From positions 1-64,000 of the IMG/VR virus record IMGVR_UViG_3300028048_000097: a DNA stretch of 64,000 nucleotides; one strand, given 5' to 3'. The notes beneath the pieces were generated by a model. It was not told where the DNA came from. It saw nothing but the letters and a program-made list of their open reading frames with translations, and ran no database searches. Made by a program: the position numbers and the translations under genes. Of the stretch, positions 1,422 to 24,338 are shown piece after piece (within the stretch, counting starts at the first letter, position 1; each line of letters opens with the position of its first letter). Source of the stretch: a virus (lineage: Duplodnaviria; Caudoviricetes).

Positions 1422-4400
1422 ATGAATAAAGACAAGGAAATCGAAAAGATTAATCAATGTATAAACGATTTAATTTACGATAAAGTCCAATTAAAAAAAG
1501 CATATAATTATTATCATTGTATTCGTGATGCGGAACAATTTAAGCATCTTGAAGATAATTATGGAATTGGGACACCAACTTCAGTTACATTTACTCCATT
1601 AATCAAGAAACATATAGATGTCCTTGTCGGAGAATATTTAGAGTTAGACCCTGATTTACAGATATCTTGCAAAGATGAGAAAACTGTTTCAGATATAATG
1701 CGTGATAAACAGTTAAAAATTCATGCTGCTGTTTTTGAACGCTTTAAACAAAAACTTCAAAATGCAATTATTCAAGTTTTACTAGAAAATAAAGAAGTAG
1801 TAAATGATCCGTTTTTTGATCAAGAAATAGCAAGGCTTAAAAAAGAAGTTTCTGATAACTATGTATCTGAATATGAGATTGCTGCGCAGAATATATTAAA
1901 TTATATTAAAAATTCACGTGATATTGATTTAAAAAATAAGATGCGTGAATTGCTTACTGACTTATTAATAGCTGGAGTATGTTATTATCGAGTTAGACCT
2001 TCTGGAGGTAAAAATAATCTAAGGCTGGAAATACTAAATCCATTAGATACTTTTATTGAAAGAAATCATAATGACTTTTACTTAAATCGTTCACCTAGAG
2101 CTTTTACTAGACGTTGGTTAACTATAGATCAGATCTTAAATGAATATGATGAAGAGCTTACATCTGAAGCTCGTAATATATTAATTAATAATACACATCC
2201 TAGTAATAGAGATAACCGGCACATTTATGTTAGAGCAGCTGCTGGTGATGGTTTTAATAAAATACCTCGTGGACAATCACCTGGTTTACTAGGAGGTTTA
2301 GAAGTTTGTCCTATTAGAGAGGTTGTCGATCCCTATTATAACTACAATGCCAATTTATTACCTGTATATGAGTGCGAATGAATTGAATATGAAAAAGATA
2401 AATTAGTTCGTCATGAAGGTATTAAAATTGGAGAAGAAGTTTATATAGTACGTGGGGAATCCGAAAATGTAGTTAGAAGTGTGTCTAATCCAAAAGATTG
2501 TACTTTATCAATAAACGGAATCTTTTTTGCAGACAAAAATGGAGCACCTTTTAGTTTGATTGTAAATACTATGGACTTACAGGATTAAGATAATGGTCCT
2601 GTCTAAATCCCGTGAATTGCTGGAAAGCTAAAACTTTATGTCATGCTAATCAGCAGCCAAGCCTTATTTAAGGAAGGTTCAACGACTATTATGTAGAATT
2701 CAAGCGAATTCGAAGCGCGGGAATATTATAAAACAACGTAAATTAAAAAATAAGTAGTTATGCCTAAAAATAGACTTAATGAAGTTGAGTACAAACAAAA
2801 AGTAAATGATCTCTATAATGGAGATATTGAAGTTATAGGAAGATATAAAAATTTATCTTCTCCAATATTAGTAAAAGATAAATACGGAGTTTTACAATTA
2901 AAACAAGCCAATTTTATATTTAGTGCAAGACCTACTATAAAATGTGCTTTAAATAAAACTGAGTATTTTATGAATCAATTGAGAGATAAATATCCTGAAA
3001 TTGCCAAAAAAATTAAGCCGGTTTCTGAATATATTGCAATGAAAGAAGATATGTTATTTGAAACTAAATATGGTATAGTATCAACTTATCCTGATGCTCT
3101 AATGGCTGGGCATGAGCCTAATGTTAGAAGCGCTATAAATAGAAAAGAATATATGAGAAATCAGTTAAGGATGCTATATGATTATAAATACGATTTTATT
3201 ATTCACTCTACTAACCGACATGAAGGTAAGTGCACTTTAATATGCCCAATTCATGGAGAAGTTGAAATTGATAATGATTATGTATTTGAAGGCTGTGGAT
3301 GTATAAAATGTAATACAAATTGAACAAAAAGTGATACTTTGTACGTTATAAAATTAACAAATGAATTTGAATCTTTTTATAAATTAGGTATTACATATAT
3401 AAAAAATGGAAATCCTCGAAGATATAGAGATTATAAAAAAATGGGTTATCAAGTTGATGAATTGTACTTACATACTTATAACTCTTATACCGAATGCTGA
3501 GAAAAAGAATTTGAACTAAAACAATTAATTAAACCTTTTCTTTATCAACCAAAAATTTGAGAAAACGATAGTTCAACAGAATGCTTCGGTAAAAATTTAT
3601 TAGACGTTGTTATTGAAAATTTATAATATATGATATAGTCTGATCTCATATGAAAATATGAGCTGCATATGCGGGTGCAAAATAGCGAATTGCACTGAAC
3701 AAAATACATTATGATTTAACCTTATTCTATAGAGATAGTTTAATTGCTAATAGTGGTACATTAGGTGATTGAGTTGATGTAAATCACTTGCCTGTATTTT
3801 TAGGAGAAGAATTACCTGAAAGATTACAAAAATGACTTGCTTATAAGAAGCAAGGAATGGGTTTATTTGATTCTTCTCAAGAAGGAGCTCAACTATTAAA
3901 TACTACATTTAATGGATTTGACGATACACTTAAAGCTCAAATGATTCAAGCTTTTGACTTAGTACTACAAAGTATAGAAAATCAAGCTAGTTCTATTACT
4001 GGTGTATTTGCAGAAAAACTTGGAGGTATTCAACAAAGAGACGCTGTTAGTAATGTAAAAGTTGGTATTAGACAATCTACTTTACTAACTAAACAGTATT
4101 TTTCTGCAATGGACTTACTATATAAAGAGGTAAATTATGATTTGTTAAATCTTGCTAAAATAGTATACAAAAAAGGTATTTGCGGTACATTAATTAATGG
4201 TAATAAATTAAATCAAATATTTACAGCATTGCCTAAATATTATACAATGACTGATTTTGATATTCATATTCAAGATAGTACTGAATTATTTCAAGCAAAA
4301 GAAAATCTTCGTGCATCTAGTATGGAACTTATTAAAGCTGGTCAGGCAGATCCAACAATGATAGTAAATATCATGCTTGCTAAAAATATAACAGAACTTC

Positions 4401-4741
4401 GTAATTATATTTCTGACGCTGTTAAAACTCAGAAAGAAGAAAATAATACTATTGGTCAGTTACAGCAGCAAGCACAAGAATTGCAGCAACAGGTTCAACA
4501 ACTTAGTAAACAAGCTAATCAACTTCAAGAAGAAAATAATAATCTTAAGAAACAGCTTGAAAAGAATAGTAATGCTAAGATTGAAATTGAACGTCAAAGA
4601 GTTGCAATTGAAGAACAAGAAATGAGAAACAAGAAGGAGTACGATGATCGTATTGCAAAAGCAAAAGAACGTCAAGTTGATGTTGAGTTTTTACAATTAT
4701 CTGACGGTAATCCTTATAACGATAAAGTAAAAGACTTATAA
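1422..4741 (+). CDS. Portal protein, spliced (exons 1422-2585 and about 3707-4741, about 732 aa)
   Basis: Follows terL. Motifs FTPLIKKHIDVLVGEYL and ITGVFAEKLGGIQQRDAVSNVKVGI, plus a C-terminal Q-rich coiled-coil barrel. The exon junction reads ...MDLQD|HYDLTLFYRDSLIANSG. Confidence 0.9.
2586..3706 (+). mobile_element. Group I self-splicing intron in the portal gene, carrying an endonuclease ORF
   Basis: The 5' exon ends in U (caggat). The IGS gtcctg (2596-2601) forms P1 with a U-G pair, and ataatg (2590-2595) pairs with the 3' exon cattat (P10). Core elements: gtgaattgctggaa, aatcagcag, ttcaacgacta (2678-2688) and gatatagtctg (3632-3642). Confidence 0.92.
2760..3626 (+). CDS. Intron-encoded putative homing endonuclease (288 aa): repeats, Zn-finger, C-terminal GIY-YIG-like domain; TGA=Trp
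   Basis: The ORF reads through TGA at 3321 to TAA at 3624-3626. It has a CPIHG...GCGCIKC zinc motif followed by LYVIKL...FYKLGIT...R...E, and lies inside the intron between the R and S elements. Confidence 0.75.
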
Positions 4742-5453: not shown

Positions 5454-5628
5454 ACGTTTATATAATTTATTAAAACAAGAGATAGCCGATTTAAACATCG
5501 GCTATCCTTATAATGAAGCCAGATTAAGGCAAATGAGAGAACTTTGCCACGTTATTATGTATTTAAAATATGTAGAAGTGGGAAGTACGGATCCTATGCA
5601 AATTTTCCAATTCTATGACAACTTATAA
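5437..5628 (+). CDS. Small hypothetical protein (63 aa)
   Basis: Track ORF with a GTG start that overlaps both neighbouring genes in coupled fashion. Confidence 0.6.
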   Translation: MENLYKRLYNLLKQEIADLNIGYPYNEARLRQMRELCHVIMYLKYVEVGSTDPMQIFQFYDNL

Positions 5629-8600
5629 TAAACTTCCATATTCAAATCAATTTGAGAGAGGCCATTCTTTTAATTGAGCAGGTCATTGGAAAGAAGGTAA
5701 ATATTACTATAACGATTCTTACGTTACTGATTTTGTAGTGTACAATAATGCAGTTCTTGTATGTAGAAAGAATCATATGTCGTCAAGTGAATTGGAACCA
5801 AAAATAATATATATTGATGGTAAAATTTCAGATGTAGATTCTTCTTATTGAGAATTTGTTTTAGGATTAGATAATAAAGGTATTGTGTCTTCTTCATCAT
5901 ATATTTCTTCAGCAACAGAAGAAGACAAAGCATTGGACGATTCTGTTGTAATTGGAGAACCTTATCTTAAAATTATTTATTTATCTGGAGCATACGCTTA
6001 TATTCCAGCTAAAGATTTAGCAATTGGCATTAATGTAGGTTTACCTATGATGACACAACAAATGCTAGATTATTTACCTGAAGAAAGTGCTGTTGATGAT
6101 TATGTTTTAATACCGGATGAAACAGATATTACAGATAATGGATTAGGTGGAACTTACTTAAATATATTATTTTCTGCAATTAGAAAACTACAGGCGGAAG
6201 TTGTAAGATTAAAAAATTCATTTCGATTTGGAATAGATTCTTATACCGGAACTGATACAGTATCATCGGAAATAGTTAGTGAATATTCTAGTATTCAAGA
6301 AGACGAACCTTTATGATCTATAGAAGAAGATGATTTATCGGAAATATCGGATGCTACAATTGATTTTGAAGATCCTTTTATTCAATTAGAACCTAGATCT
6401 GCTATAAATTATGATAGTACAGGATATGCTGAAATATTAACTAGTGCATCTACAACTGAAGCAATTTCAAACGCATACAAAGAAATAACAGATACAAAAA
6501 TTTTTTTATATCTTACTGTAGATAAGCCAAATATAATTATAAATTTAAAAGAACGGTTTGATTTAAATTCTGATATTAGTATTGATTTAAATTCAATTGT
6601 TAGCAATTATAATACATTAAACGAAAAGTATAATATTTGTATTCTTGTTTCTAGGAAAATGTTATTAGAAGAAGATAATACAGAATATGGCAAAAACTAT
6701 ATATGAATTTCAATTGGTTATTTTAATACTAATAGAATAATTAAAGAAGGTTATTATAATTTATATACTAATTCTTTACAAAAGAATTTATATGAAATTA
6801 GTGGTAAATATTATATAAATTCGGTTACGTTTAATAGCTTATCTATTTATAAATTTAACGCATATTCTAAATATCAAGATTTTAGTCATGAGGTTATTCA
6901 AAGCCAACCTGATGACAGTGGATATAAATATAGAGCTGCCCATATTACAATTAGAGCTGTAAAATCATTAAGTGAATTAGAATCTATAACAGATAGACTT
7001 CAAATTAACGAATTGGTATGACAAGATGATCAAAATATATTATGAATTAACGGAAAAAATGGCCCAGTTCCTATAAGTGGGTCTAGCATTAAACCTGATA
7101 GTGGTATGACAGAACAAGAAATGATTGATAAATTGGAGGAACTTGGCATTGTATATATTGATAATAACGGATTACAATTATCAAATATTTCAGACGTTAC
7201 CTTCATTAATAGTGATACAAATAAGAAATTTAAATTTACTGTAGATTCAGAAGGAAATTTAAATAGTCAAGAATTACCGGCTTCTACATTAGCAAATAGA
7301 GTAGCATCTCTATCTCCTGAATTAAGTACAAATGAAGAAATAAGAGGTTTTGTTGCAAAATTATTTGCTACTGAAAATAATATAAATCCTACTACTGGTG
7401 GCGATTTAAAGTTAAATTCGGATAGAATTAAAATAGGAGCTATTTATGCGCCATTAGTGGGAGATACTAAATTTGGATGCTCTCATGGATATATAGAACT
7501 AGAAAATACATCTGATAAAGATTTTCCTTTAGAAGGATGTTATTTACATTATGTGCATCCTAATGAAACAAACGATTCTATTTTTGATTGTGAACATTTG
7601 GCTTTAGACGGAATTCTTCCTGCATGAGGTACATATTTAATTAGATGTAAAAAATATGCAGATCCTGAGTTAGATGAAGATGTGTTTATTAATGTAAATT
7701 CTTTTGATAAAGAATGATACATAAACGGAGAATTATTAGATTTAACTCACAATACAACAGCTTTTTATGGATTTGCATTAACTTATGGTAACGAAGTAAA
7801 TGGAAGTGAGGTTGGAGCAGCAACTGTATTTAAAAAATCTAATAGCGCTGACACAAAAGCTCCATATTTTTATGTATATAATTTTATAGATGCAATTTTC
7901 TTTAATAAACACCCTGCTACTACAGCAGGAACATGAGGTAAAAATACTTGTAGTTCATACAGCAATACTATAACAAAAAATACATTTGAACTTGACCCGG
8001 CAAAGCAAGCATATCAAGCTTTAACACAATATGATAGTTCTAGAATAAGATTAGATAATGTTACAAATGATATTCAATATTTAAATTTAGATAAAGAATA
8101 TATCGAATTTCCTAATTCTGATGATAAATATCCTGTAAATTTATTTACTCCAAAATCATCAAAAGAACATAAAAATGTTTCTGTTGACAAAACAAAATTA
8201 GATAAAAATAAACCAAATATGGTTACTTGTTCTTTTGGTATAGATATATATACTACAAGAACTTTTAATTGAATATCTTGTGGAGAATTCGATGAATACG
8301 TTTTTATAAAAAATGGTGAAAATAATTGATTAAAGTTCGAATCTTATAAATCTGGAGATGAAAATAAAACAATGTCATCGGAAAATATTGCAAGAAAAGA
8401 ATTTGGTTCAGTAGCGATAAATAGTATTTATAAAAGAATTGTAGGTAATTTTCCAGGAGACGGAACCCATTATACTTCTCATAAATGTATAATACAATTT
8501 AATTTTGGATTACCGACAGATATAAAAACTGTATATACTTATATTGTTGGCAGAGCTGATAAAAATGGCAATCCTGATTTTGAACATTGTTCAGAAGAAT

Positions 8601-10123
8601 ATACTTTTACGTTGTATCCAACATCTTATACTCCTAGAATTTATCAAATTACAGATCAACAAGGTTTTCATTGAATTGAATATCAGGTATGAGCGGCGGC
8701 TGCAAATAAAATTAATGAACGTATAATATCGGATACGATTAATGAAAATATCATACCTATATTGATAAATACCGGAGATATGACTCAAAATGGTACTAGA
8801 ATCAATGAATGATTGGATTATTATAATGCTGGTAAAGTATTATTCAATCATCTGGAACAAATGAACGTTGTTGGAAACAATGATCTTTGTGATACAAATA
8901 TAAATATCTTAGGTACAGGTGACGATATTGGAAAATCAAATGGATATTATTTTCACGTATTTTATTGTTATGAAGTAAACGAAGATAATCTTCCTGTTAT
9001 TACTAGAGATAGTGATGAAGTAATAAAATATATACCGTCTTTATATTATTTTGATTCAAATAATTATCGTTTCATCATGATTAATAGCGAATTAACTTAT
9101 GAAAATTGTAATAATTGATTTGATAAGCATTATAATGGACAAGTAGTAAATGTTTATACAGGATGAGCTATACCGGTTTCTGGTAACTCTGCTGGATATT
9201 GTGATAATTTTACAACTATTTATACTATGATTTATCGTATGTTGAATACCAAAAATACGAAAAATGCAATAGCTGTTTGTCACGAAATGCCGTTTACTGT
9301 AATTACTAAGGATGGTTTAACAACGCAAGCAAATGTTTATGGAAACTATCGATCATTAAGCAAAGCAACTAACGGATTTAAAGCTTCTTTGGTTGGGAGC
9401 CATACAAATCAATTAACTGGAAGTGATATTAAAGCTCCACATTGATTAAGTCGATTATTTGAATACTTTCAAGTTAAACTTTGTATAGGTGGACATAAAC
9501 ATACATATGCTTGTACATATCCAATTAGAGAAAATTATTTTTATACTGTTAACGATACTGTAATAAATAGTGCTAGTGGTCCTATGCCTATGCAAGAAAC
9601 ATTAGAAAATGATAACACAAGTTGAATATATCCTGATGATTATGAAACAGAAGGATTGAGAGGGTATAACACAAGTAAAAAACCATATGTTAAAGGTCCT
9701 GTTGTATCAAGTGTTCCTGGAGATGGATATTTTTCACCAATGATAGTTGATAATAATTTAGAAGGTGGTGTTACATATTTTATGTGCCAGGCAACTGGAT
9801 ATAAATTAACCTCTAATAAAGAATTACCAAGTAATTATCAACATTTTTCCAAATTAATACCACAAACTGGTAAAAAAGCAAATGGCGATGATAAAGCAGA
9901 TGGAAACCAACAATATCCAATGTTTTCTATTATTAGTATGTCTGGAAATACATATTTAATTAAATTATTACGTATAACAGATATTAAAGATGATGCAAAC
10001 GATCATGTGTTTACGCAACAGCAATACGGAACAGGAACCCCCGCTTTTCAATATGCAACAGAAACATTAGATTCTAGATATTGTACTTGATCAACAACCG
10101 AAACAGCAATAATTTCAATATAA
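5615..10123 (+). CDS. Large (about 1502 aa) putative virion protein: N-terminal anchor domain, lamin-tail-like domain and calcineurin-like metallophosphoesterase (purple acid phosphatase-like); TGA=Trp
   Basis: Track ORFs 5885, 7106, 8372, 8813, 9227 and 9656 share one frame and are joined by TGAs. LTD-like YIELENTSDKDFPLEGCYL. Metallophosphoesterase motifs occur in order: ITDQQG, NTGDMTQNG, VVGNNDL, CHEMP, GGHKHTY. Confidence 0.8.
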
Positions 10124-10124
10124 T

Positions 10125-13100
10125 ATGAAAAGAAAAGGTAATATAAATGTAATTACTGATAACGATGTGATTGTTACCGGTGCATCAAATGCCGGTAACA
10201 ATCTTGATGTCGTTGTTGAAAAGATGAGTGAGGATATTTTAGATTTAAAAAGTCAATTAAAATGAACTCATAAATATGGTGCTGTAGGAAGCGGTTCTGG
10301 TGGTGGAGGAGGATCTCTTAAATGAAACCTTACTGCTACATTAGACGGACAACCAATTAGTTCTGGAAATATTATTAGTTTAAGTAATGGAGCCTCTACT
10401 TATTCTTTAAGAATTGCTGTATCAGGAGGTTCTTCAGAATATAATGTAACATACAATTATAATAATAATCCGCTTGTTGTTACATTATCTTCTAATAATA
10501 ATTGAAAAACAGAAATTCCAATTAAATTATCAGCAAATGGAAATATTACTATAGAAGTTACAGATAATATACAAATTAAAAATGTCTATGCATCTTATAT
10601 CGTCGTACCTTTTACATTTGGTGATTTACAACTTGTAAATGAAAATCTTGATAAATATCTAAGTAATGATATTTATATAGATCGTGCATCTGAAAATGGA
10701 TTATATATTAAATGTGATTATGATATTGTTGTAAACGCAGAATGTACATATACATGAACATTTATAGATGAAGAACCGATATCTGGCACAATCGAAAATA
10801 AAAATGGATATTTGCTATATCAAATTCCAGAAAAATATCTTGATGATGAATACGCAAATTCTTATAATGTTAAACTTTCTATTAGAATTTCTCCTGAAAA
10901 TCAAGAAGCTAGAATTATAAATAAAACTATTACATTTAACTTAATACCTTCTACAATTTATTTAAAATTGTTACCACAAGTTGGATTAATTTATGATTCT
11001 GAAATAGAGAGTGAAGATATATATAAATATAGCATTAATAGAGAAATTGCGTTTAGTTGTAGAATATATCAAGGCGTTAATCAATCTAGAGAATGTTCTG
11101 TAGTTTATTGAAAAGACGGCGATACAGAATCTGCGTTAACCCATAGAAGTAGAGAAGGTGAAACATTTACACTTAAAGTATCTTATGATACACCAGGTTG
11201 ACATAGTGTTACATTTCGTTACTCAATGGGTTCTTTTTCTGGAGAAGTTACTAAATATTTATATTGCCAAAAAGTAAGTTCAGATTATAATTGATTTAAA
11301 CCTAGTGTTGTTCCATCATTACAATATTTTTATAAAGGTTACGAAACTACAAAAACATTAGAAATTAATGAACCAATTACTACATCAAATATACAAGTTT
11401 ATCGTTCTAATGTAAACAATATTATATATCATTTTGGAACAAAACCAGATAATATTGGAAATATATTAATTAATATTGGAATTCAATATAGTGAAATTAA
11501 TAATACATCTGATCCTATATGTATTATTAGAAGTAATGAATACGTATCTACTAATGAATTTATTACTGTTTATCAAAACAAAATAGTATTTAGTGGAGTA
11601 TTTGGTGGACAAGAACAAAAATGTAATTTTTTCTTACATAAAGAAGAAAATTATAGCGCCGGTGATTTAGATAATTATCATTTAATAACAATAGCAATAT
11701 CTCCTGTTTATGAAGATTTGATTCAACAGCAAATTTATTATGAATATGAAATATATTTAGATGGTGTGTTGGAAGGTGCATTAAACATATGGCCAACCGC
11801 TGTAAAAATATTAGGACTTGTTGAATTTTGTCCTGGAAACTATTCTATTAATCATTTTTCTGTTGATTATTTTTATAACGGAGGTAGTGTAAGTAGTGTA
11901 CATGATTCAGATATTAATTATTACTATTATAGTTATTTAATTAAATCAAGAAATGATTTGGATGTAGTATCAGCAGAAGATACAAATGTTTTAAATTTTT
12001 TATATGACTCTAGTACTAATAAAGTTAATTACTATATGGATCATGATTTAGTTCATGTAGAAAATACTTTATATGATAATATTGCAAGAAACATAGAAAT
12101 ACCAACTTTAGTAGCAAGAGTATCTAAAATACAGGAAACTATACAAAATCAGCCAAGTATTTATGATTGAATTAATAGAAATTATACTCAAGATTCTACA
12201 GACGAACTTGCAAAAGCTAAAATAATACTTAACGAATTAAGATGGGGAAAAAATAAAACAGAAACTTCTGCTATAAATGTTCCGGATGGATTTAGTAATT
12301 ATCATTTTTATTTAAAATTACAAGGTTCATCTACAATGAACAATAAATCTAAAAACTTTACATTAGGTTTAGAAACTTCTGATGAAGGTGATCAAACAAT
12401 TTTGTTATTTTCTCCAAACTATCAAAGAGACGATTATAGTAGTTTTTTACATGAAACACAATTTACATTAAAAGCGGATGTTGTTGATTCTGCCCATACA
12501 AATAACGTAGCAATAGGACGTTTTGTTAATGAAAATAATAAATTTGATTATTATATAGGACAAAACGCTTCTTCTGATATATTAAAACATGTTAGACAAT
12601 GTTTGGACGGTTTTCCTATATTAATGTATTTAGAGGTTGTAGATGGAAGTAATGTGGATACTTATTATCTTGGTGTATATTCTTTCAACTTAGGACGAGA
12701 ATCTTATTTTAATTTAGGATATTGTGACTTAAGTCAGCTTAATCCAGATTATATAGATAATGCAACTAATACATCATTCTCGTTTACAACGGTTGGCTAT
12801 GGAGACCAAAAAGGTTTAAAACCATTAGATGGTTTTGCTGCTGCTGAGGTGCAGGATAATAGTAAGTATTGGGATTTTTCTCAATTTGATAATACAATTT
12901 TATTTCAACAAAATAATGAACGTGCTAATTTCATGTTTGGAGATATTGTAGCTGCAGATAATTCTGAAGCAACGACTAGTATTAAAAATTTTGTTGAATC
13001 TGTATCATTAGGTGGTGGATATTTATTTTCTGAAATGGGCAAAACATTTGAGGCTGTTAATAATGTGGAAAATCCAGAAGATATGTCTGTATTATATCAT

Positions 13101-16100
13101 AAACCAAATGTTGTGCCGGATTACAAAATACAATATCAACGCAATGGAGGCATGTATTACCAAAAAATAGAAACTTTATCCCCGGCTACTTACAATGACT
13201 TATTTAATTGTATAGGTGGTATAGCAGATGACACATTAATTAAAGGAAAACTTAATTATAATAGTTTAGCATATTATTATACTACATGTATGGCTTTTGG
13301 ACTTGTAGACTCTGTTCAAAAGAACTTAAATATAAAGACTTGGGATAATTCAGAATATGGTTTATTCTTTTATGATATGGATACTTGCTTAGGAAGAGAT
13401 AATGATGGAAACCCAACTTCGTATTTTTGTTTCTCAGATTATTGAAAATCAGACATAAAAGAATATGATTCTGAAGGCAATCTTATAGATAGAACTTTAC
13501 CAGAAGACGTCAATAAAGTTGCAGAAACGATTGTAAATAATGGAGTTACTGTATATCGTGATTATTTTCCTCTATCTAGTGATATAACTGGATATGATAT
13601 ACCAAGTTCATATTTATTTGCTATTGCAAAATACACAAAAGCCTTAAGTGCTTATGATTCAAATCCAAATTTTTTATCTCCACAAACCATTTATGGAAAG
13701 TGGCGTACAGTTAATGGTCCACTAGAAACAGCTAAAAAATTTATTGATAAGTATTATGGATCAAATTTGGCTGGTGTTCCAGATTGTATGTTAAATCTAA
13801 ATTATAGAAATAAATATTTATATTATAGAGAATCAGACGAAAATAGAATTGGCTTTTCTAATGTATCAAAATATTTATTTGGTAGAGGTGTAGAAGTAAC
13901 AACAGAGTGATTAAAAGGTAGGCTACATATATTGGATGCATATTTTAATATGGAAAATGAGGATATCATTATCTATAGTGGAAATACAACGTATATGGAA
14001 CCAAAAAGAATTACAGTCGGTCTCGAAAACAATCAGGATGTTGTTATATTGAAAGATATTTTCCAAGCAGCAAACGAACCTTGAAGAAGGGACACCAGTG
14101 TTTTAGAATTTGTAGTAAAAGCTCCTGCATATACACCCTTAATTATTCAAGGCTCTACATTTTTTAGTCAATATCTTTTAGAAAAAGATAACTTTCCATA
14201 TACAATAAGAACTTCATTTAATGGTAAACAAACGTCTGTTTTTGGTGGATCTCAGTTATGAACAGATTTAAATAGTATTAACTCCTTTGTTAGTTCTTCA
14301 TCTTCTGATAACGGAAATCCGTTGTACATTAATAATAAATATTTAGAATATCTAAATGGTACCGACGGTGTTTATACAGGAGGATTTAATTTTGTATTAC
14401 CGGCTGTAAAAGAAATTGTTTTAAATAGTCCTGGTTATATTGGAGCACTATCAATCGATAATTCTTTTTATAATTTATCATATATAGATATTTCTAAATC
14501 TAGTATAGTATTAACCGTAGATGAATCTAGAGTTACAACAATAGATGCTCGTGATATAAATAGTTCATCGTTGACATTAGTTAACTGTAATAATTTACAA
14601 TCCGTTTTGCTGAACGGAGCGTCTATTAATTCATGTGATATTCGCCCTGCGTGAACAAAAGATATAAATTTATCAGAAAATAAAATAAAATCTTTATCTG
14701 TTGCTGGAAAAATGGAAAATGATTCTTATGGAACTTTGGAGATTTCTAATAATTCTACAATAGAAAATATTAATTTTTCTGAATTTAATACAGTTAATAT
14801 ATCAGATTGTGCTTCATTAAAAACTGTAGTTCATTCAGATGATCCACCTGTATTGACATCATTGACTATAACCAATTGTACAGAACTAACGTCATTAACT
14901 GTACTTGTGGATAAGTTAACTACATTAAACTTAAGCGGATGTACTAGTTTAACAAGATTAATACTAAAAGGTAGTGATTTTACTAAATTACGAAAATTAA
15001 ATTTATATCAAACCAAAGTTGAATATATCGAATATGATGACGATACAGATACAAGTTGTTTAGATTTATCAAGATTTACTAATTTAGCTACAAGCTCTTC
15101 TACAAACACTGCATATGTTAGACTTGGAAGTAATCCTGCAGTTAGAGTAATTAAATTAAAAAATGTTAGTTCGTCTCCTGTTTATTTATCATATAATTTA
15201 CAAGGATGTACTAATTTAGAAAGAATTTATGGAAATATAAGAATCAATGTAAGTGCTTGTTTTAAAAATTTAAGAAAATTTTCTATTCATGGGCCTGATT
15301 TACAAAATGTAATATGGCACGGTGAATCTGTATTAGATGGGACTAGGGTAAGATATCCTAAAGATATAACATCTGATTATTTTAGTGATGATCCAAATGC
15401 AACAAATATAACATTTTATACAAGCACATGTACAGAATCATTTTCTACAACTAATTGTACAATATTTGATTATTATTACATACTTTCTAATTTAGGAAAT
15501 GGTAAAAATTTAGGATCGTTGTTCTCATATCCACAAAATACAGCGTATGGGCGTTTTAATATAGAAAATGATAATAATCCTGATATAAGATTATTTGAAA
15601 ATTGTTCTGCGGTAACGTCTTTATCATTTTGTTTTGGTTATTCTGCCGGTTCAAATCATATATATTTACAATCTCCTACTATAAGCGAGAATACCGTTGT
15701 AACAGATGATGGCTTATTTTCAGCATTAATCAATTGTACAAATATTAATGGTATATTCTATTCATATAGTTATGTATGCGATAGATATTTGTTTAGAAGA
15801 AAAAATGGTAATTATAAAATAACAAGTTATACGTATTTTACTCCAAATCATGTTTTAAACAATCCTCCTGAAAATTATTCATGATCTACAATTGTATCAA
15901 CTTATACAAATTATAAAGAAAATACTGGAAATTTAGAAGGATTTTTTACTAATTTGCCGTCCATAGCAACTATTACTGGATTTTTTAATGGAGTTGGATA
16001 TATAGATTATTCAAAAATATTTATTATACCAGAAACTGTAACTACATTAAAAGGTGCTTTTGTAAGCACTAGAGCGTATTGTGATAATTTTATTTTAGAA

Positions 16101-17858
16101 AATTACTTCTCGAATCCATCAACTATTCAATATTTATTAAATAGTTTTAGAATGACCGGATCAATAACAGAAGATTATTATGTTAATATGGAACTTAACA
16201 ATAATACATTTTCTAAATTTATCAATATTTTACAAATAGGATATAGTACTTCAGCCCCATTTGATGTACCAGATTATACAGGCAGTTGTTTTGCTGGGTT
16301 TAGTAAAAAAATTAGTGCAGATGGATTTCCATTTAATATTTTTGCAAATAATACTAAAGCAACGAAATTAATAGCAATTTTTGCTAATGCAACATCATCT
16401 GTTAATTATAGTAATTTAAAATTACCAAATGATTTATTTAGAAATAATACTAAATTAACTGATATTACAGGAATGTTTTATAACATGAACGTTAATTATC
16501 AATTATCAGATGACGAAAGTATTAATTTTAAAAACTGTGAAAATATTCAAATTTTAGATTATGCGTTTGCGGAATCAGCCACTAATAGTAAATTACCATC
16601 ATTAAGTGGTAACATTCCTTATAAGTTTTTCTGGCATGGTGAACAAAATGTAAGTAAAACTTATTATGGTACGAACGAAAGAGAACCTATTTACGAAAAT
16701 GAAGAAATTGTTGGATACGAATATATTAATCCTCAACCATATACGGTATATACTAAAAATGTTAATACTACAATATCTTCTATGCGATATTGTTTTCAAC
16801 ATTCAAATTTATCCGCTTATGTTAACACAGATATAGACTCTTATATAGAACCTAATCCTTCATACGCACCATATACTTATTATTCAGAATCAATAAACGG
16901 TACATTTAAAACTAATAATAATATCGATAATAGAGAATATACGTTTATTTGAGCTTTTGATGGATCCAATTTACCTTCTAATTTTACTAGTATAACTAAA
17001 AATAATTATGAATTATTAGACAGAACTATAAGTAGCGAATTAGCGGATATTGATTCGGATTGTACATATGAAACTGTTACTTATCCTACAGGTGGAGGCA
17101 TTGGAAATCCAATTGTGTCTAGTAATTATATTGCTCCACCAGATTTGCTAAGATATTGTACAATTAAATGCGATATAAGAGGTTTATTTGCATATAGTGG
17201 TGTCCAAGGATGAGATTATAGTAGCAATAATTCTGGTGGATACAATCAATACGGTTATGGTTTAACTGGTAGAATTTGCCCATATATGTTAAAACCAGTA
17301 TACGAAACAGAAAATTTAGCAAATTTATTTAGATGCTGTAAAAAATTAAGTTATTATAGATATAATGTTGAAAATAGGGGAGACGCTTATTTAATTCCAG
17401 AAGATTTCTTTACATATGCTAAAAAAGTTGTAAACTTAACAAGTATGTTTGAAGATACGTTGCAACCTCAATTATCTAACTTATCTACAATATTTAAACC
17501 TTTAACTGGAACATTAACAATAACAAGATTATTTTACGCATCTTATTGGGATGGTAATAAATATCCAGGTATATATACACAATTATCAAATGCTTTTAAT
17601 ACACATTCCATCGCAAATATGGAAAAAGCTTTTTGTATTACAACTGTTGCCAGTAACGAACCAACAAATAGAATTAGAGATCAGTTTGTTAAATTTAGCA
17701 ATATGTTTAATACAAGATATAAGAAAACTACATATTCGACAAACTTAGCTTATTCTGATGTATTTAGAGGATATAGAAAAATAGGGGATGGTGAAAATGA
17801 AAGATTTGGTATAAAAACTCTTGTGGATAATAATATTACTAATAATTATACTTTATAA
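10125..17858 (+). CDS. Giant (about 2577 aa) putative virion/fibre protein with a CotH-like kinase domain followed by leucine-rich and BspA/DUF285-like repeats; TGA=Trp
   Basis: Track ORFs 10812, 11718, 12336, 14322, 14712, 15954 and 17286 share one frame. CotH-like motifs: LQGSST..KSKNF, LKAD..DSAHTNN, YLGVYSFN, GLVDSVQKN, FYDMDTCLG. LRRs: LTSLTITNCTELTSL, LTTLNLSGCTSLTRL, LPNDLFRNNTKLTDITGMF. Confidence 0.8.
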
Positions 17859-17899: not shown

Positions 17900-18433
17900 A
17901 TGAAAAAAGATATAAAAATTAAATATAACGACGCTTTCGGAACAATCCACTCTCGTGACTATTATAAAGGTAAATCCTTTCATTATGCAGGAGAGTGGAC
18001 TTCTGGAGCACACTATTTTAGTGATGACTATAATGTAGATTTCATTGTTAAAGATAATTGTTTACTTGCTTGTTCTCAAAGTCATTTTGCAACTTTAGAT
18101 AACGAACCAAAAAATTTTATTTTAGATTCTAATGGTAGTCCTATAGGAATTGCGTCTAGATGATGAGATTTTGTTTTAACTGGCGTTCGAGGATATACTC
18201 CAAAAATTAAAGTTGAAGACGACGCTTGATGAGTATCATATGATGGAGAAAGAACTTGAGAAAAATTAACAGATCTTGTAGATACACACTGAGGTGAAGA
18301 AACTGATAATACTATACAATTATCTGTTAATAAAGTTATATATACTTTAAATAAAGAAGTAAAGCCTATTACTGACAATGAAATAGATACTATTTTAAGT
18401 GAATTTAATATAAAACATTATGTCAGAGAATAA
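17900..18433 (+). CDS. Virion protein sharing its N-terminal domain with the 5615 protein; TGA=Trp
   Basis: Reads through several TGAs, including tandem TGATGA at 18161 and 18227, to TAA at 18431-18433. The pattern GKSFHYAGEW...DFIV...C..SH...EP...WDFVL matches the start of the 5615 protein. Confidence 0.75.
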
Positions 18434-18886: not shown

Positions 18887-20281
18887 ATGGCAATAAACGA
18901 TAGTGCCCCGTATATTTCTAAGGTTACGTTACCTTCGGGGAATACATATACAATAAAAGATGCTGCAGCTAGAGAGGCTATTGCTGCACTAGAAGGAGGA
19001 TCTTATTTTTTAGGTGTAACTACAACAGCTTTAACAGACCAAGCAACAACCAGTCCTATTAAAATTGATGGAAATGATGTAACTCCAACTAATGGTAATA
19101 TAGTTGTTTATGGTAACGCTGAGTTTGTATGAAATGGTTCTAAGTGAATTGAATTTGGCGATTTATCTACTTTAGGTGATTTGGCTACTAAAGATAGTGT
19201 GGCTTTAAATAAAGGTACTGGTGATAATGTACTTGGTGAATCTACTACTTTTACTAATGCCAGTTCATCTGTTACTTTTACCGGAGGCACTACAGATAAA
19301 GTACTTGGAGAATCAACTACTTTTACTGCGTCCACACCAACTATTACAGTTACACCCACTACTACTAATATTAAAGCAACTGCTTCTGGTACTGCTGTAG
19401 GAGCTAATGGTACTGCACAAGCAATTACTGGATTTGGCACACATACTACAGATACATTTGTAAAATCAGTATCTGCAGAAACTAATAAAAAGCTTGTTAC
19501 GACTTCTATAGTTCCAACAAATGGCACAGAAACAGTATCTAAAGTTACTAAAACTGCTAGTAAGCTTGTTACTACATCAATTCCTAATGTTACAGCCAAT
19601 ACAACTGTATCCATACCTAATGTTACTGGTAATACCAGTGTTACAGCAAACAAATCTACATGAAGTTTTACTATGGGTACTGGTACTGGCGCTGAAACTT
19701 TAATTATAGGTGGTAGTAATGGCAACGATGTAACAGCATCTAAAGTTACATTAGGTACTGCAATATCTGCATCTAAAGTTACACTTGGTACAGCTATTAC
19801 TGCTGCAACTGGAGCTGTAGCTAGTACAGGAACAGGTAGTGATATTGTCACGGCAGTTAATATTTCTGATAAAACTGTTGCTAAAACAGGTACTGCTGTT
19901 ACAGTTGCAACAGGAGCTACAGATGCTGATGGTACAGGAGATGCAATAGTTACAGGTGTTACTATAGGTGAATCTGCATCAGCTATTACTGCATTAGGCA
20001 CACCTACAAAATCAGCTTGTTTAACAGGTGTTAAAGTAACTACACAACCTACTATAACATTAGCTACAGGAGCTACAGCTGGTACAGGTGTTATTTCTGT
20101 TGCAACAGGTATTGATTCAGCAACTTCTACACAACCCACAATTACAGTTGGCACTAATGATAAAGTTACAGCTGTTACTGGTATTGGCACAGGTACTGCT
20201 GCTGCACAAAAGATTACAGTTGGAACAAATGATAAAGTTAAAGTTGCTAAATTTGATGATCTTTCTGTAACGGTATCTTAA
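18887..20281 (+). CDS. Thr/Gly/Ala/Val-rich tail fibre or needle protein (464 aa); TGA=Trp
   Basis: Track ORFs 18887, 19181 and 19673 are in one frame. Beta-rich internal repeats, and an EFVWNGSKWIEFG module restored by TGA=Trp. Confidence 0.8.
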
Positions 20282-20291
20282 ATAAAGTATT

Positions 20292-23200
20292 ATGGCAGAC
20301 GTTAGTAAGATAAAATTACCAAGCGGTAATGAATATAATATTAAAGATGCTCGTATTACCGGAGTAGATTCTGCACCTACTTCCGGTAGTACAAATGTTG
20401 TAACTTCAGCTGGAGTTTATAATGCTATATCTGAAGCAAAAGCTCCTTTACAATCAGTAAGTTATAAAAGCGCATGATTAAGTACTTCAACTTATACTAA
20501 TCATTTACTTATGAATGTAAAACCTATTGATTGAGAAAAGGTTTATACAATTAAATATAGATTAAATTGTTCTATTGAAAATACAGAAAGTAGTAATACA
20601 GAATCTTTAGTCACCTTTCAATTTACTAAAGATGTTTTACGTTCATATTACGTTGAAAACGCGGTTACAAATACTGCTCGTAAATCTTTTTATCAACATT
20701 CTGCATATCCTGTTAGCAGCACAGGATTTAATAATGGTTTTGGGGCCTGTGTTGGTATTATAATACATCCTTCTACAGCTTCATATTCATATGCTGGATC
20801 ATCAAGTTACAGACTTGTTAAGATTGATTTATTAGAAGCTATTAATTGTGAAGTTGAACTATTTAATAAAGACTTACAAACGATAGATATACCAGTTAAT
20901 ACTTCAACTACACACATGGCTAATGTTGTAATTTCATCTGCAACAGGTTTACAAGAAACTGGTGATGCTAATAATACATATGCAAATTATAGTTTTGGTA
21001 ATAGTTATGGAATTTGTACAACTGTAGGAGAAACATTAGCAAAAACATCAGCAATTAGTAATTATACTTTAACACAAGGTGCGGTAACTACAATTTATTT
21101 TGAAAATGCAGTTCCCGCAAGTTCTACTTTAAATGTAAATACTAGAGGCGCTAAACCAATATATTATAAAAATGAACCTATAACAAATAATATTATTAAA
21201 GCCGGGGATACCGCTACATTTAGATATACTAGCGATGTTTTAAGTAGTGGCGCATATATGTTGGTAGCTTTAGATAGAGATTTTAATGATTTTGTTGTTG
21301 CTAAAGCGTTAAATGATTTAGAATCAACTAAAGAAGATTCTGAAAATAAAGTTACTTCTTTAACACCATTCTCTACAGATATTCAATATCCTTCTGCTAA
21401 AGCTGTATATGATCATATTAACACTCAATTAACTAGTGTATTAAAATATAAAGGTACTATTGGTACTGGTGGTACTGTAACAACTTTACCAGATTCTCAT
21501 AATATTGGTGATGTCTATGTTGTATCTACTGCAGGAACATACGCTGGAAAAGCATGTGAAGTTGGAGATTATATTGTATGTAAAACTGCTGGAACTAGCG
21601 CTAATAATGCTCATTGAGATGTAATTAATGGTGAAAATCAAGTAGAAAATAAATCTGCTTCGTTAGCAGCTGCGGGTAGTAGTTCTACACTTGCTACAGT
21701 TGATGGTACTAATATTACAGTTACTACTCCAAGTACATGAACTGGTGTTGCAAAAACTGGTACTGTTACTAGCATTACATTGAAAGGAACTAGTCCTATT
21801 ACTGTAGATAGTGAAAGTGCTTTAACAACATCTGGTACAAGAACAATTAGTCATGCTAATTCTGGAGTAACCGCAGGTACATATAAATCTGTTACTGTTG
21901 ATGCAAAAGGACATGTTACTGCTGGTACAAATCCTACTACATTGGCTGGATATGGTATTACTGATGCTGCACCGGCAGTTTCTGGTGGTTATTTACCATT
22001 AAGCGGCGGTGTAATGCAAAGCGGAGCAACAATTAAATTAGACCTCTATTCTGGACAAAGAATTCTTACATTAAGTGGAAATAGTATATTGCATGATCTT
22101 TCTACTGCAACAGGGGGATATGCCGGATCTTTTTATTCAATAAGAACAAAAGGAACAGACAACGAATTATATACAACCACAGGACTTGGATTTTATGGTG
22201 GAAGTTATTACGAAAAAGGATTAAACTATTTATATTTTTCTGCTCCTGGAGAAACGCATAGAGATCCTTCTATAAAAGTAACAGTAAATGGACTGGCTAC
22301 ATTTAAAAATCAAGTTACAGCAGCAGGATTTAAAACACCTAGTGGAACTAGTTCTCAGTTTTTAAAAGCTGACGGTAGTGTTGATAGTAATAGTTATTTA
22401 CCAGAAAATCAAGCTATTTTATCTAGAATGCAAGATGATGCTACACATAGAACAGTAACAGATACCGATAAAACTAATTGAAATAATAAACAATCTACTT
22501 TAATATCTGGTTCTAATATTAAAACTATTAATAATACATCATTATTAGGTTCTGGTAATATTTCAATTCCTTCAGGTAAATCTGCTTATGATATATGACT
22601 TGATGCTGGTAATACAGGCACTGAATCTGATTTTCTTGAATCATTAAAGGGTAGTAGTGGATATTCTGGGGCAGCAGGAGAACTTCAAGTTGTTAACGAT
22701 TTAACTACAGGTGGAGCTACAGCGGCGTTATCTGCAGAAATGGGAAAAATATTAGCTGATATGATTAATGCGCCTATTAATATTGACTTATCGAGTATAA
22801 CTGTTAATACAGGATGGGCTATTTCTACTAGTACTGGAAAATGAGCATCTTCTTCTAGCTATAAATACATATTAGTGCCTGTCGAAAATTACTATAAAAT
22901 AATTGTTTATACTTCTAGTTCTGGAATTTCTGCATTAGCTTGACTTAAATCTAATGCATCTCCTGTTAGTGGAGGAACTCCAGATTATGCTTCAGAAACT
23001 GCTATATGGACACAGACGGCGGGAACAACAGAAACTTACGAAGTACCTTCAGATGCAAAATACTTATACATTTATGTAGCCTCTAGATATCCTGATAAAA
23101 TAATAGGTATTAATTATAATACCGAAACTACTTCAGATAGTGATATTTATGTTAATTCTTCTGAAAATGATTTTGAAATTGTTGATGAAAATAAAAATCC

Positions 23201-24338
23201 TATTGTAGTTTTTAATGATGGCCATATTAAAACTCTTAATTTTGATTCATCCAAACTTGAAAAATTACCATACGTTAGAAGAAATTTCTTTAGTTATAAT
23301 GTAAATTGTACTAATTTTTTAACTACAAATTTTACAGCCTCTAGTATTAATTATTATGATCCGATTGCTTTATATGAAGATAATGCAATTTTGTATTTGC
23401 CAGCTTCATATTCTAATCAAGGTCCAAAAACTAAATTAATTATTTATTGTAAGGAAGGAAGTACTTATATGACTGAAGATCATGATAGTATTTTAACAAA
23501 TCCTGAAGCAACCAGATATTTTTTATATCAAGGGTATGCAATTCTTGCTGCCGATGGCGTTCCAGATGGATGAAAAGAAGCTCTAAAGATTGGAGAACGC
23601 GCTGTAGGTAATTATGTAGCTGTACAAAGTACATTAAGAGCCTTTGAATATGTTAAAAATAATTATAATATTGACTGTGACAATGTATTTATTTTTGGAT
23701 ATTCACAAGGTGGAATGTATGCAGAAAATGTAATAGATAATACAGATTTACCAATTAGAGCTGCTGTACTATTGTCTCCTGCTCTATCGATGAGATATCA
23801 TCAATGAGATGCTCCAACAAGTCAAACTATTGATGGTACATCATATACAAAAGGAGCAAGACTAAATATAGCAAGAATTTTTAATTTTCCTGAAGTAACA
23901 ACAAATGCTCAATTATTAGCACTTGCATATGATCCAGATAAAGTTTGTGGGTATGATCCTTGAGTTAGGAATGTTGATAATCCTTATGATGGATTCATAA
24001 AAGGAACTAGTGTTGGAACTGAACTTTGAGGATTACCTTCTGGTGCATCGTTAGATTCTATTACTATGAAAAAATATACAAAATGTCCAACGAAAATTTG
24101 AGTTGCAGAAAATGATAATGTTTTGGGTGTAGATATTACTAAAGTGTTTGTTAAAGCTATAAGAAATACTGGGCAGGTTGCAGATTTACAATTATTTAGT
24201 ACAGGTGAGCATCATATACAAAATTATCAAACTGCTATTAGAACTTTTGTAGAAAATGGAGAGAATGTATCATTATTGCCATTATATTTAGATATGGCGG
24301 CATGATATTATAATTTTGGAGGACTTGAATTAAAATAA
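20292..24338 (+). CDS. Modular tail fibre or receptor-binding protein (about 1348 aa) with a C-terminal alpha/beta-hydrolase (esterase) domain; TGA=Trp
   Basis: Track ORFs 20292, 20916, 21780, 23391 and 24123 share a frame. Fibre repeats such as VTVDAKGHVTAGTNPTTLAGYGITDA and YLPLSGG. Nucleophile elbow IFGYSQGG near 23690-23715, with later candidate Asp (ENDNVL) and His (GEHH). Confidence 0.8.

Follow-up and report, generated by a model that had tools for sequence, protein, structure and literature searches.

Why should a phage carry two giant genes side by side, one resembling a phosphatase and the other a kinase, and do their products work together? The question is raised by positions 5615-17858 of a 64,000-nucleotide stretch of DNA (hereafter the window) from the IMG/VR record IMGVR_UViG_3300028048_000097, the whole window being one plus-strand block of a 100,365-bp crAss-like phage record. 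An initial annotation had pointed to two back-to-back open reading frames (ORFs), visible when TGA is translated as tryptophan, and had proposed that they may encode virion-borne enzymes that add and remove phosphate. We describe the first, ORF1, as a phosphoesterase with the fold of purple acid phosphatases (PAPs), and the second, ORF2, as a protein combining a CotH-type kinase fold with leucine-rich repeats (LRRs). Both reading frames, both folds, the residue invariance, the fixed gene order, the co-divergence of the two genes and their transfer across phage lineages are direct observations of this analysis. The explanation that we favour, with moderate confidence, is that of a conserved mobile two-gene cassette whose products are both active enzymes and act jointly as proteins of the fibre locus.

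Two reading frames opened by TGA as tryptophan

Under translation table 4 (TGA = Trp), the plus strand of the window contains two giant ORFs separated by 1 nt: ORF1 (P0001, 5615-10123, 1502 residues), the phosphoesterase protein, and ORF2 (P0002, 10125-17858, 2577 residues), the CotH-fold/LRR protein. Table 11 splits the interval 5615-17858 into ORFs of at most 390 residues. Tryptophan is encoded by 19 TGA and 1 TGG codons in ORF1 and by 16 TGA and 8 TGG codons in ORF2, giving 35 in-frame TGA in total. Neither TAA nor TAG occurs in frame in the 4079 codons of the two genes combined; at a G+C content of 29%, this excludes chance.

The reading of TGA was examined by alignment. Seventeen TGA codons of ORF1 can be aligned with gp20 of phage cr124_1; 12 of them stand opposite TGG (Trp) and the remainder mostly opposite Tyr or Phe. 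In the phosphoesterase core, all the TGA codons (8/8) fall in columns where Trp is invariant among 50 homologues. Judged from these alignments, TGA is read as Trp in this phage, and the two adjacent frames of the initial annotation are thus confirmed. A reading as Gly or as any other residue was ruled out, the aligned homologues showing TGG Trp. ARAGORN detected no tRNA gene, and hence no TGA suppressor tRNA, on the 100,365-bp record, which is 59% complete according to CheckV; a tRNA could sit in the missing part. Most late genes of the record also depend on TGA = Trp.

A different recoding was observed in related phages. In L007, L011, L026 (Lak-A2), L027 (cr52_1) and L028 (Bohxovirus), in-frame TAG codons occupy otherwise invariant Gln columns, namely Q1016 and Q1058 in the phosphoesterase and Q733 in the CotH core. 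Since TAG stands exactly at invariant Gln columns, this is direct evidence that it is read as Gln in those relatives. Among the related loci, recoding inside a cassette gene concerns TAG in seven cases and TGA in two. L028 corresponds to PV686213.1 (Bohxovirus sp. 'endotrachealis'), which originates from an endotracheal aspirate. Its GenBank annotation uses the standard code, which breaks the giant cassette genes into many small 'hypothetical proteins' and is misleading.

Folds and candidate active sites of the two proteins

The C-terminal 653 residues of ORF1 (residues 850-1502, 8162-10120) were modelled with AlphaFold on an alignment of 50 homologues. The model is of high quality (predicted local distance difference test score, pLDDT, 90.4; predicted template modelling score, pTM, 0.93) and displays a beta-sandwich followed by a binuclear metallophosphoesterase domain. 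Foldseek retrieved 3zk4 at E 8e-17. Superposition on kidney-bean PAP gave a Z score of 22.6, with 391 of 424 residues aligned at a root-mean-square deviation (rmsd) of 3.4 Å, covering both PAP domains. The next-ranked structures were GpdQ (Z 18), mammalian PAPs, PhoD and SMPDL3A/B. The core therefore shares its two-domain architecture with the plant PAPs (kidney bean 1KBP, sweet potato 1XZW, lupin PPD1 3ZK4) and with B. subtilis PhoD (2YEQ). However, it differs from the PAPs by its low identity (10-19%), by changes at the Tyr, at the GNH His and in motif I, and by its fusion to about 850 residues of other domains.

The five ORF1 motifs occur in canonical order: D1014-Q-Q1016-G, G-D1055-MT-Q1058, G-N1088-N1089-D1090, H1223-E and G-H1294-K-H1296. 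They extend from D1014, where DQQG begins (nt 8654), to H1296, where GHKH finishes (nt 9502). None of the five varies among 50 close homologues or across 15 distant cassettes. These 15 cassettes, whose cores share 25-50% identity, were used for the residue table and for the trees described below; Bacillus phage G is absent from the residue table. The candidate metal ligands D1014, D1055, N1088, H1223, H1294 and H1296 are all present and invariant. Gln takes the place of the seventh ligand, which would be the His of motif I or the Tyr of PAPs (Q1016, Q1058), and the His of GNH is replaced by Asn (N1089); these replacements are invariant too. Together with the fold, this invariance supports the metallophosphoesterase identity that had been proposed for ORF1. 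The five motifs had also been located and ordered correctly, but 'DQQ' and 'GNND' are not canonical metallophosphoesterase motifs.

ORF1 is not 'purple' in the strict sense: the Tyr of GD-x-x-Y, a ligand of Fe(III), is replaced (GDMTQ, with Q1058 invariant). On the evidence of the model, the core is PAP-like in fold only. Nevertheless, the best-kept stretch of the protein is residues 1001-1100, with a mean identity of 78%. Because the substitutions never vary and this stretch is the most conserved, we infer a functional active site with modified chemistry rather than a decayed one.

The core of ORF2 (residues 640-1330, 12042-14114) was also modelled (pLDDT 84.5). Foldseek matched it to the B. 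cereus CotH kinase 5jd9 (E 6.4e-7, probability 1.00), and 5jd9 and 5jda were the sole significant PDB entries. The superposition on B. cereus CotH aligned 349 of 358 residues at an rmsd of 3.5 Å (Z 19.4). The runners-up were other kinase-like folds: CtkA (Z 8.2), then PI3K and HipA (both about 6). The sequence family was then compared by hhalign with seven bacterial proteins positive for Pfam CotH (PF08757), taken from metagenome-assembled genomes (MAGs) reached via related loci. The ORF2-core family alignment matched this set with 98.5% probability (E 3e-15, 326 columns).

The motifs QGSST...KSKNF, DSVQKN and YDMDTCLG of ORF2 align with the CotH motifs G-x-S-S...K-K-N-Y, D-x4-N and Y-D-x-D, from Q733 (nt 12321), where QGSST begins, to D1086 (nt 13382), where YDMD finishes. 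D1062 and D1084 lie opposite the only two Asp that are invariant in the seven-protein set. They are 22 residues apart, as compared with 23 for D228 and D251, the catalytic Asp of B. subtilis CotH (PMC7821199); the two pairs were equated through invariance and spacing, not through direct alignment to the Bacillus sequence. Across the 15 cassettes, at 25-40% identity for this protein, the invariant residues are K743/N744, K783, D785, D788, H791, R858, E908, D1062-x3-K1066-N1067, D1084-M-D1086 and N1093. The CotH-fold core thus appears to keep candidate catalytic-loop Asp and Asn, a candidate metal-binding Asp and a conserved Lys. Fold, profile comparison and invariant residues all agree with the CotH-like kinase core of the initial annotation, and its motifs lie where they had been placed.

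The known CotH Ser/Thr kinases of Bacillus (5JD9/5JDA; B. subtilis CotH) resemble ORF2 by the atypical kinase fold, the two invariant Asp with near-equal spacing and an N-terminal G-x-S-S...K-N-(F/Y) motif. They differ in that identity is only 9-14% and that large insertions bring the ORF2 core to about twice the length of CotH, within a 2577-residue LRR protein. Other phage proteins share the CotH fold, including targets of diversity-generating retroelements fused to C-type lectin folds and 'CotH kinase' entries of BFVD. They end in lectin rather than LRR domains and have no reported phosphoesterase partner. To our knowledge, kinase-fold enzymes within giant fibre-like phage proteins have never been characterised. 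Phage CotH domains in general were described as unstudied by Benler et al. (PMC8008677).

Phmmer and profile searches of PDB sequences found neither PAPs for ORF1 nor CotH for ORF2, and searches of the whole proteins against Pfam, PHROGs and NCBIfam gave nothing above threshold. The CotH and PAP identities are therefore drawn solely from fold and profile-profile comparison. A search for shorter relatives of the ORF2 core returned fragments only, none with PF08757; a free-standing form of the subfamily was not found in this search.

Conservation along ORF2 is uneven. Mean identity is 39% in the first 100 residues (10125-10424), which consist of a helix and a Gly-rich linker conserved in the family consensus, 19-29% in residues 101-700, 34-46% in the kinase core and 17-23% in the C-terminal half. 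This profile, with a kept N-terminus and core and a variable distal half, would be expected of a fibre that is anchored by a fixed end; the N-terminal 100 residues are a possible attachment or oligomerisation module. A BspA-like LRR region covers about residues 1400-1700 (approximately 14300-15200): at positions 1411-1680, the family profile matched the BspA-like LRR structures 4fs7 (E 3.5e-7) and 4gt6 (E 1.9e-4) and other LRR chains, while the single ORF2 sequence gave weak matches only. The LRR/BspA-like tail of more than 1000 residues proposed initially is supported in this region, but not in the last 850 or so residues (15201-17855), which are repeat-like and poorly conserved. Similarly, the lamin-tail domain predicted in ORF1 (possibly at residues 625-679, 7487-7651) is found as a precomputed PF00932 match on several homologues, but is below threshold in ORF1 itself (E 0.017).

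Both folds might be mere binding or structural modules of a fibre, catalytically dead, as in the fungal CotH invasins. The non-canonical phosphoesterase motifs would fit such a scaffold, as would the fact that Pfam models miss or barely reach both domains. However, every candidate catalytic or metal-binding residue of the two enzymes is invariant in the 15 cassettes even though their overall identity is 25-50%, and each protein is best conserved along its active-site stretch, whereas decayed sites would drift. We consider dead scaffolds very improbable.

The two genes as a travelling unit

In 12/12 loci with enough upstream DNA, the CotH gene is immediately preceded by the phosphoesterase gene on the same strand. 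The same order was found in three added phage loci (Lak-A2, cr52_1 and Bohxovirus); on a short MAG contig (L015), no upstream phosphoesterase match was detected. The carriers belong to three crAss-like families, 178-kb Bacteroides phages, Lak megaphages and Bacillus phage G, and their genomes measure 93-550 kb. Both proteins are matched by identical groups of records within the phage collection: 14 Lak megaphages, 8 uncultured crAss-like phages and crAss002, as well as six 167-179-kb Bacteroides phages, IAS virus and one Bohxovirus. Bacillus phage G gave a sequence match to ORF1 only. The neighbour of its matching gene gp352, gp353, has a CotH fold in BFVD; the two genes keep the order phosphoesterase, then CotH, and are 2 nt apart.

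Maximum-likelihood trees of both cores were calculated for the 15 cassettes. The two trees are congruent in every well-supported clade, and have in common a seven-member clade (including the window, cr124_1 and Lak), IAS virus with Bohxovirus, L011 with L013, and crAss002 with DAC16 and cr52_1. Both conflict with phage taxonomy, the members of Suoliviridae appearing in three places. Since congruent trees cut across taxonomy, the cassette has been inherited and transferred as one piece; as far as these trees can tell, it is a two-gene unit that moves horizontally between unrelated phage lineages. Independent occurrence of the two genes in relatives, which would have spoken against a linked system, was looked for: the genes were adjacent wherever the flanking DNA sufficed, and their trees agreed. 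The N-terminal regions of the cassette proteins are common only within the closer clade and unrelated in the distant clade, as expected if they were lineage-specific attachment domains.

The closest annotated system is that of cr124_1 (Burzaovirus faecalis, Suoliviridae), which sits with the window in the well-supported seven-member clade of each tree. Its gp20 ('phosphatase') and gp19 ('spore coat protein-like protein; similar to spore coat protein/internalin/CotH kinase') are the counterparts of ORF1 and ORF2 and follow each other in the same way, their ends abutting or overlapping. ORF1 aligns with gp20 over 91% of its length at 45% identity, and ORF2 with gp19 across residues 1-1585 at 33%. 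In contrast to the window, cr124_1 has recoded TAG instead of TGA; its flanking genes are other ones, and the C-terminal 1000 or so residues of ORF2 cannot be aligned with it. The same cassette is found in crAss002 (gp19 'phosphatase' and gp20 'transferase/internalin-J LRR'), IAS virus (gp084/gp081), cr52_1 (gp10/gp11), the Bacteroides phages DAC16-23/SJC03, the Prevotella Lak megaphages and Bacillus phage G (gp352/gp353). The cores show 25-45% identity and, phage G aside, the same invariant residues. In IAS virus, three annotated genes follow the phosphatase, two 'internalin-like' and one 'transferase'; it is an 'internalin-like' one that matches the CotH core.

The cassette itself is thus not new, its relatives being labelled in RefSeq as 'phosphatase' and as spore-coat, CotH kinase or internalin-like proteins; labels of the second gene include 'transferase/internalin-J' and 'internalin-like, receptor-binding protein'. 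The statement that no characterised phage system resembles this one is fair with regard to function, but overlooked these labels. A literature search found no paper on the gene pair and no functional study of the carriers' copies. What this analysis gives is the explicit congruence of the trees, the residue table of 15 cassettes and the shared N-terminal module described below. The window copy itself contributes little more than a TGA-recoded example found in another host environment.

The cassette was also observed on contigs L007, L009 and L011-L013, one of which measures 360 kb and which are binned as Erysipelotrichaceae, Bacilli, Anaeroplasmataceae and Lachnospiraceae MAGs. These are either mis-binned phage contigs, or the cassette also exists in phages of Gram-positive gut bacteria.

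Location in the phage and possible joint function

In this phage, the cassette follows TerL (40-1161) and an intron-split portal gene (1422-4741) and precedes the fibre-type genes, which start at 18420; its location in IAS virus is similar. The position between portal and fibre genes had been described correctly. Directly downstream of ORF2, ahead of the fibre genes, a small ORF of 177 residues (17900-18433, plus strand) carries the N-terminal module of ORF1 (residues 9-83, 5639-5863). The first 75 or so residues of ORF1 are 36% identical to the N-terminus of this small ORF (E 6e-18), and these are the only two copies of the module in the 100-kb genome. Moreover, a review of Crassvirales mentions phosphatase domains among tail-spike annotations (PMC10136315), and the record of cr52_1 gp11 carries the note 'receptor-binding protein'. 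The position of the locus, the shared N-terminal module and the annotation in the review favour a virion appendage.

Two fibre proteins further downstream (18887-20281 and 20292-24338) have a common N-terminal motif, K-x-x-L-P-S-G-N-x-Y-x-I-K-D-A, which ORF1 and ORF2 do not have. Because they lack this motif, the cassette proteins probably attach differently from the classical fibres, if they are attached at all. The second fibre protein (1348 residues) contains phage fibre repeats (PF22337) and, at residues 1074-1309 approximately, a C-terminal alpha/beta-hydrolase (S9/S33-like) domain; it is possibly an esterase or deacetylase tail fibre. Upstream of the cassette, the portal consists of an N-terminal half (1422-2588) and a C-terminal half (3788-4741), with an HNH-type endonuclease ORF (2760-3626, phrog_681/559) between them.

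The pair could instead be non-structural, that is, cytoplasmic host-takeover or assembly enzymes that modify host or phage proteins or precursors where ATP is available, and are not part of the particle. The sequences of ORF1 and ORF2 have no signal peptides, the neighbourhoods of the cassette in DAC16 and phage G are not clearly structural, and Bacillus CotH operates in the mother-cell cytoplasm (PMC7821199). This is set against the sizes of the proteins (1500 and 2577 residues), the LRR/BspA-like repeats and the fast-evolving distal half, all typical of fibre or adhesin proteins, the location of the cassette in the fibre/spike region of crAss-like genomes and an N-terminal module common to an ORF of the fibre block. 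We regard a purely cytoplasmic role as possible but doubtful. In the main text of a paper on the proteomics of the phage G particle (PMC12484599), gp352 and gp353 are not mentioned. In the same phage, gp350, two genes upstream of the cassette, is annotated with a GGDEF diguanylate-cyclase motif, and gp341 and gp348 are two more metallophosphoesterase genes near the cassette.

Several results weigh against a pair of active enzymes in a fibre locus. Pfam Metallophos (PF00149) scored 19.4 bits on ORF1, under the gathering cut-off of 21.5, although a precomputed PF00149 match exists on two homologues. Three canonical residues, the His of motif I, the Tyr of PAPs and the His of GNH, are missing from ORF1, whose chemistry may therefore differ from that of PAPs. 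Pfam CotH gave no match on ORF2 at E <= 0.1, nor anywhere in the genome at E <= 10; among the relatives, one scores 27.5 bits in a genome scan, which reaches the cut-off, and E is 7.6e-4 for another. With no Pfam match but 98.5% probability in the profile-profile comparison, the ORF2 core is a divergent subfamily beyond the current PF08757 model. None of the flanking genes is conserved with the cassette and no third gene travels with it. The genes around the cassette in DAC16 and Bacillus phage G are small or of DNA-metabolism type and form no obvious structural block. Finally, a kinase on a free particle has no obvious ATP supply.

Nevertheless, the strict pairing, the co-divergence and the invariance of the active sites speak for a genuine biochemical function that the two proteins share. 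In the explanation that we favour, gene 2 would be translationally coupled to gene 1 through the 1-nt gap, and the two proteins would cooperate, probably as a complex. In this phage, they would be late proteins of a variable tail-fibre/spike locus behind the portal. Their lineage-specific N-terminal parts would serve as anchors, and the variable LRR end may bind the host surface. The most likely substrates of the phosphoesterase are phosphomonoesters or phosphodiesters carried by polymers or lipids of the host envelope. As for the CotH domain, it most likely moves phosphate from ATP inside the infected cell during assembly, not outside the cell; as ATP is in the cytoplasm, the kinase would act before release. 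There is a precedent in Bacillus CotH, which acts on spore-coat proteins in the cytoplasm of the mother cell (PMC7821199). The cassette products thus probably form a late, particle-associated two-enzyme complex, the kinase acting prior to release.

The initial annotation went further and suggested that the particle-borne kinase and phosphoesterase add and remove phosphate on the same target, either a host glycan, lipid or protein, or virion proteins. Such a writer/eraser pair would agree with coupled, co-diverging genes for opposing predicted activities, with the conservation of both active sites and with an LRR tail that could target the pair. However, PAP-type enzymes accept many small and polymeric phosphoesters, and nothing hints at a substrate common to both enzymes. 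Outside the cell there is no source of ATP, and a futile cycle on one target would bring no obvious gain to the particle. We consider the writer/eraser reading unlikely. A related and still less likely scheme is a phospho-modification machine, in which the CotH domain phosphorylates proteins on the virion surface, or else glycans or lipids of the host envelope, and its partner, the phosphoesterase, removes or edits these marks. If this were true, adsorption or host range in many gut phages would be governed by phosphate chemistry and not by glycan cleavage, and the cassette would represent the first enzymatic 'phospho-switch' on a phage particle; one candidate target would be the Ser/Thr-rich fibre proteins whose genes lie immediately downstream.

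Whatever its exact chemistry, the cassette is common: the CotH core is matched by 381 representative clusters at 50% identity, and the homologue set of the phosphoesterase counts more than 1176 clusters. It is present in dominant phages of human and animal guts, including crAss-like phages, Lak megaphages and large Bacteroides phages. The question of its role can be tested directly, as cultured carriers exist (crAss002, DAC16-23 and phage G). A joint function of the two proteins could bear on how these phages recognize or penetrate capsulated Bacteroidales.

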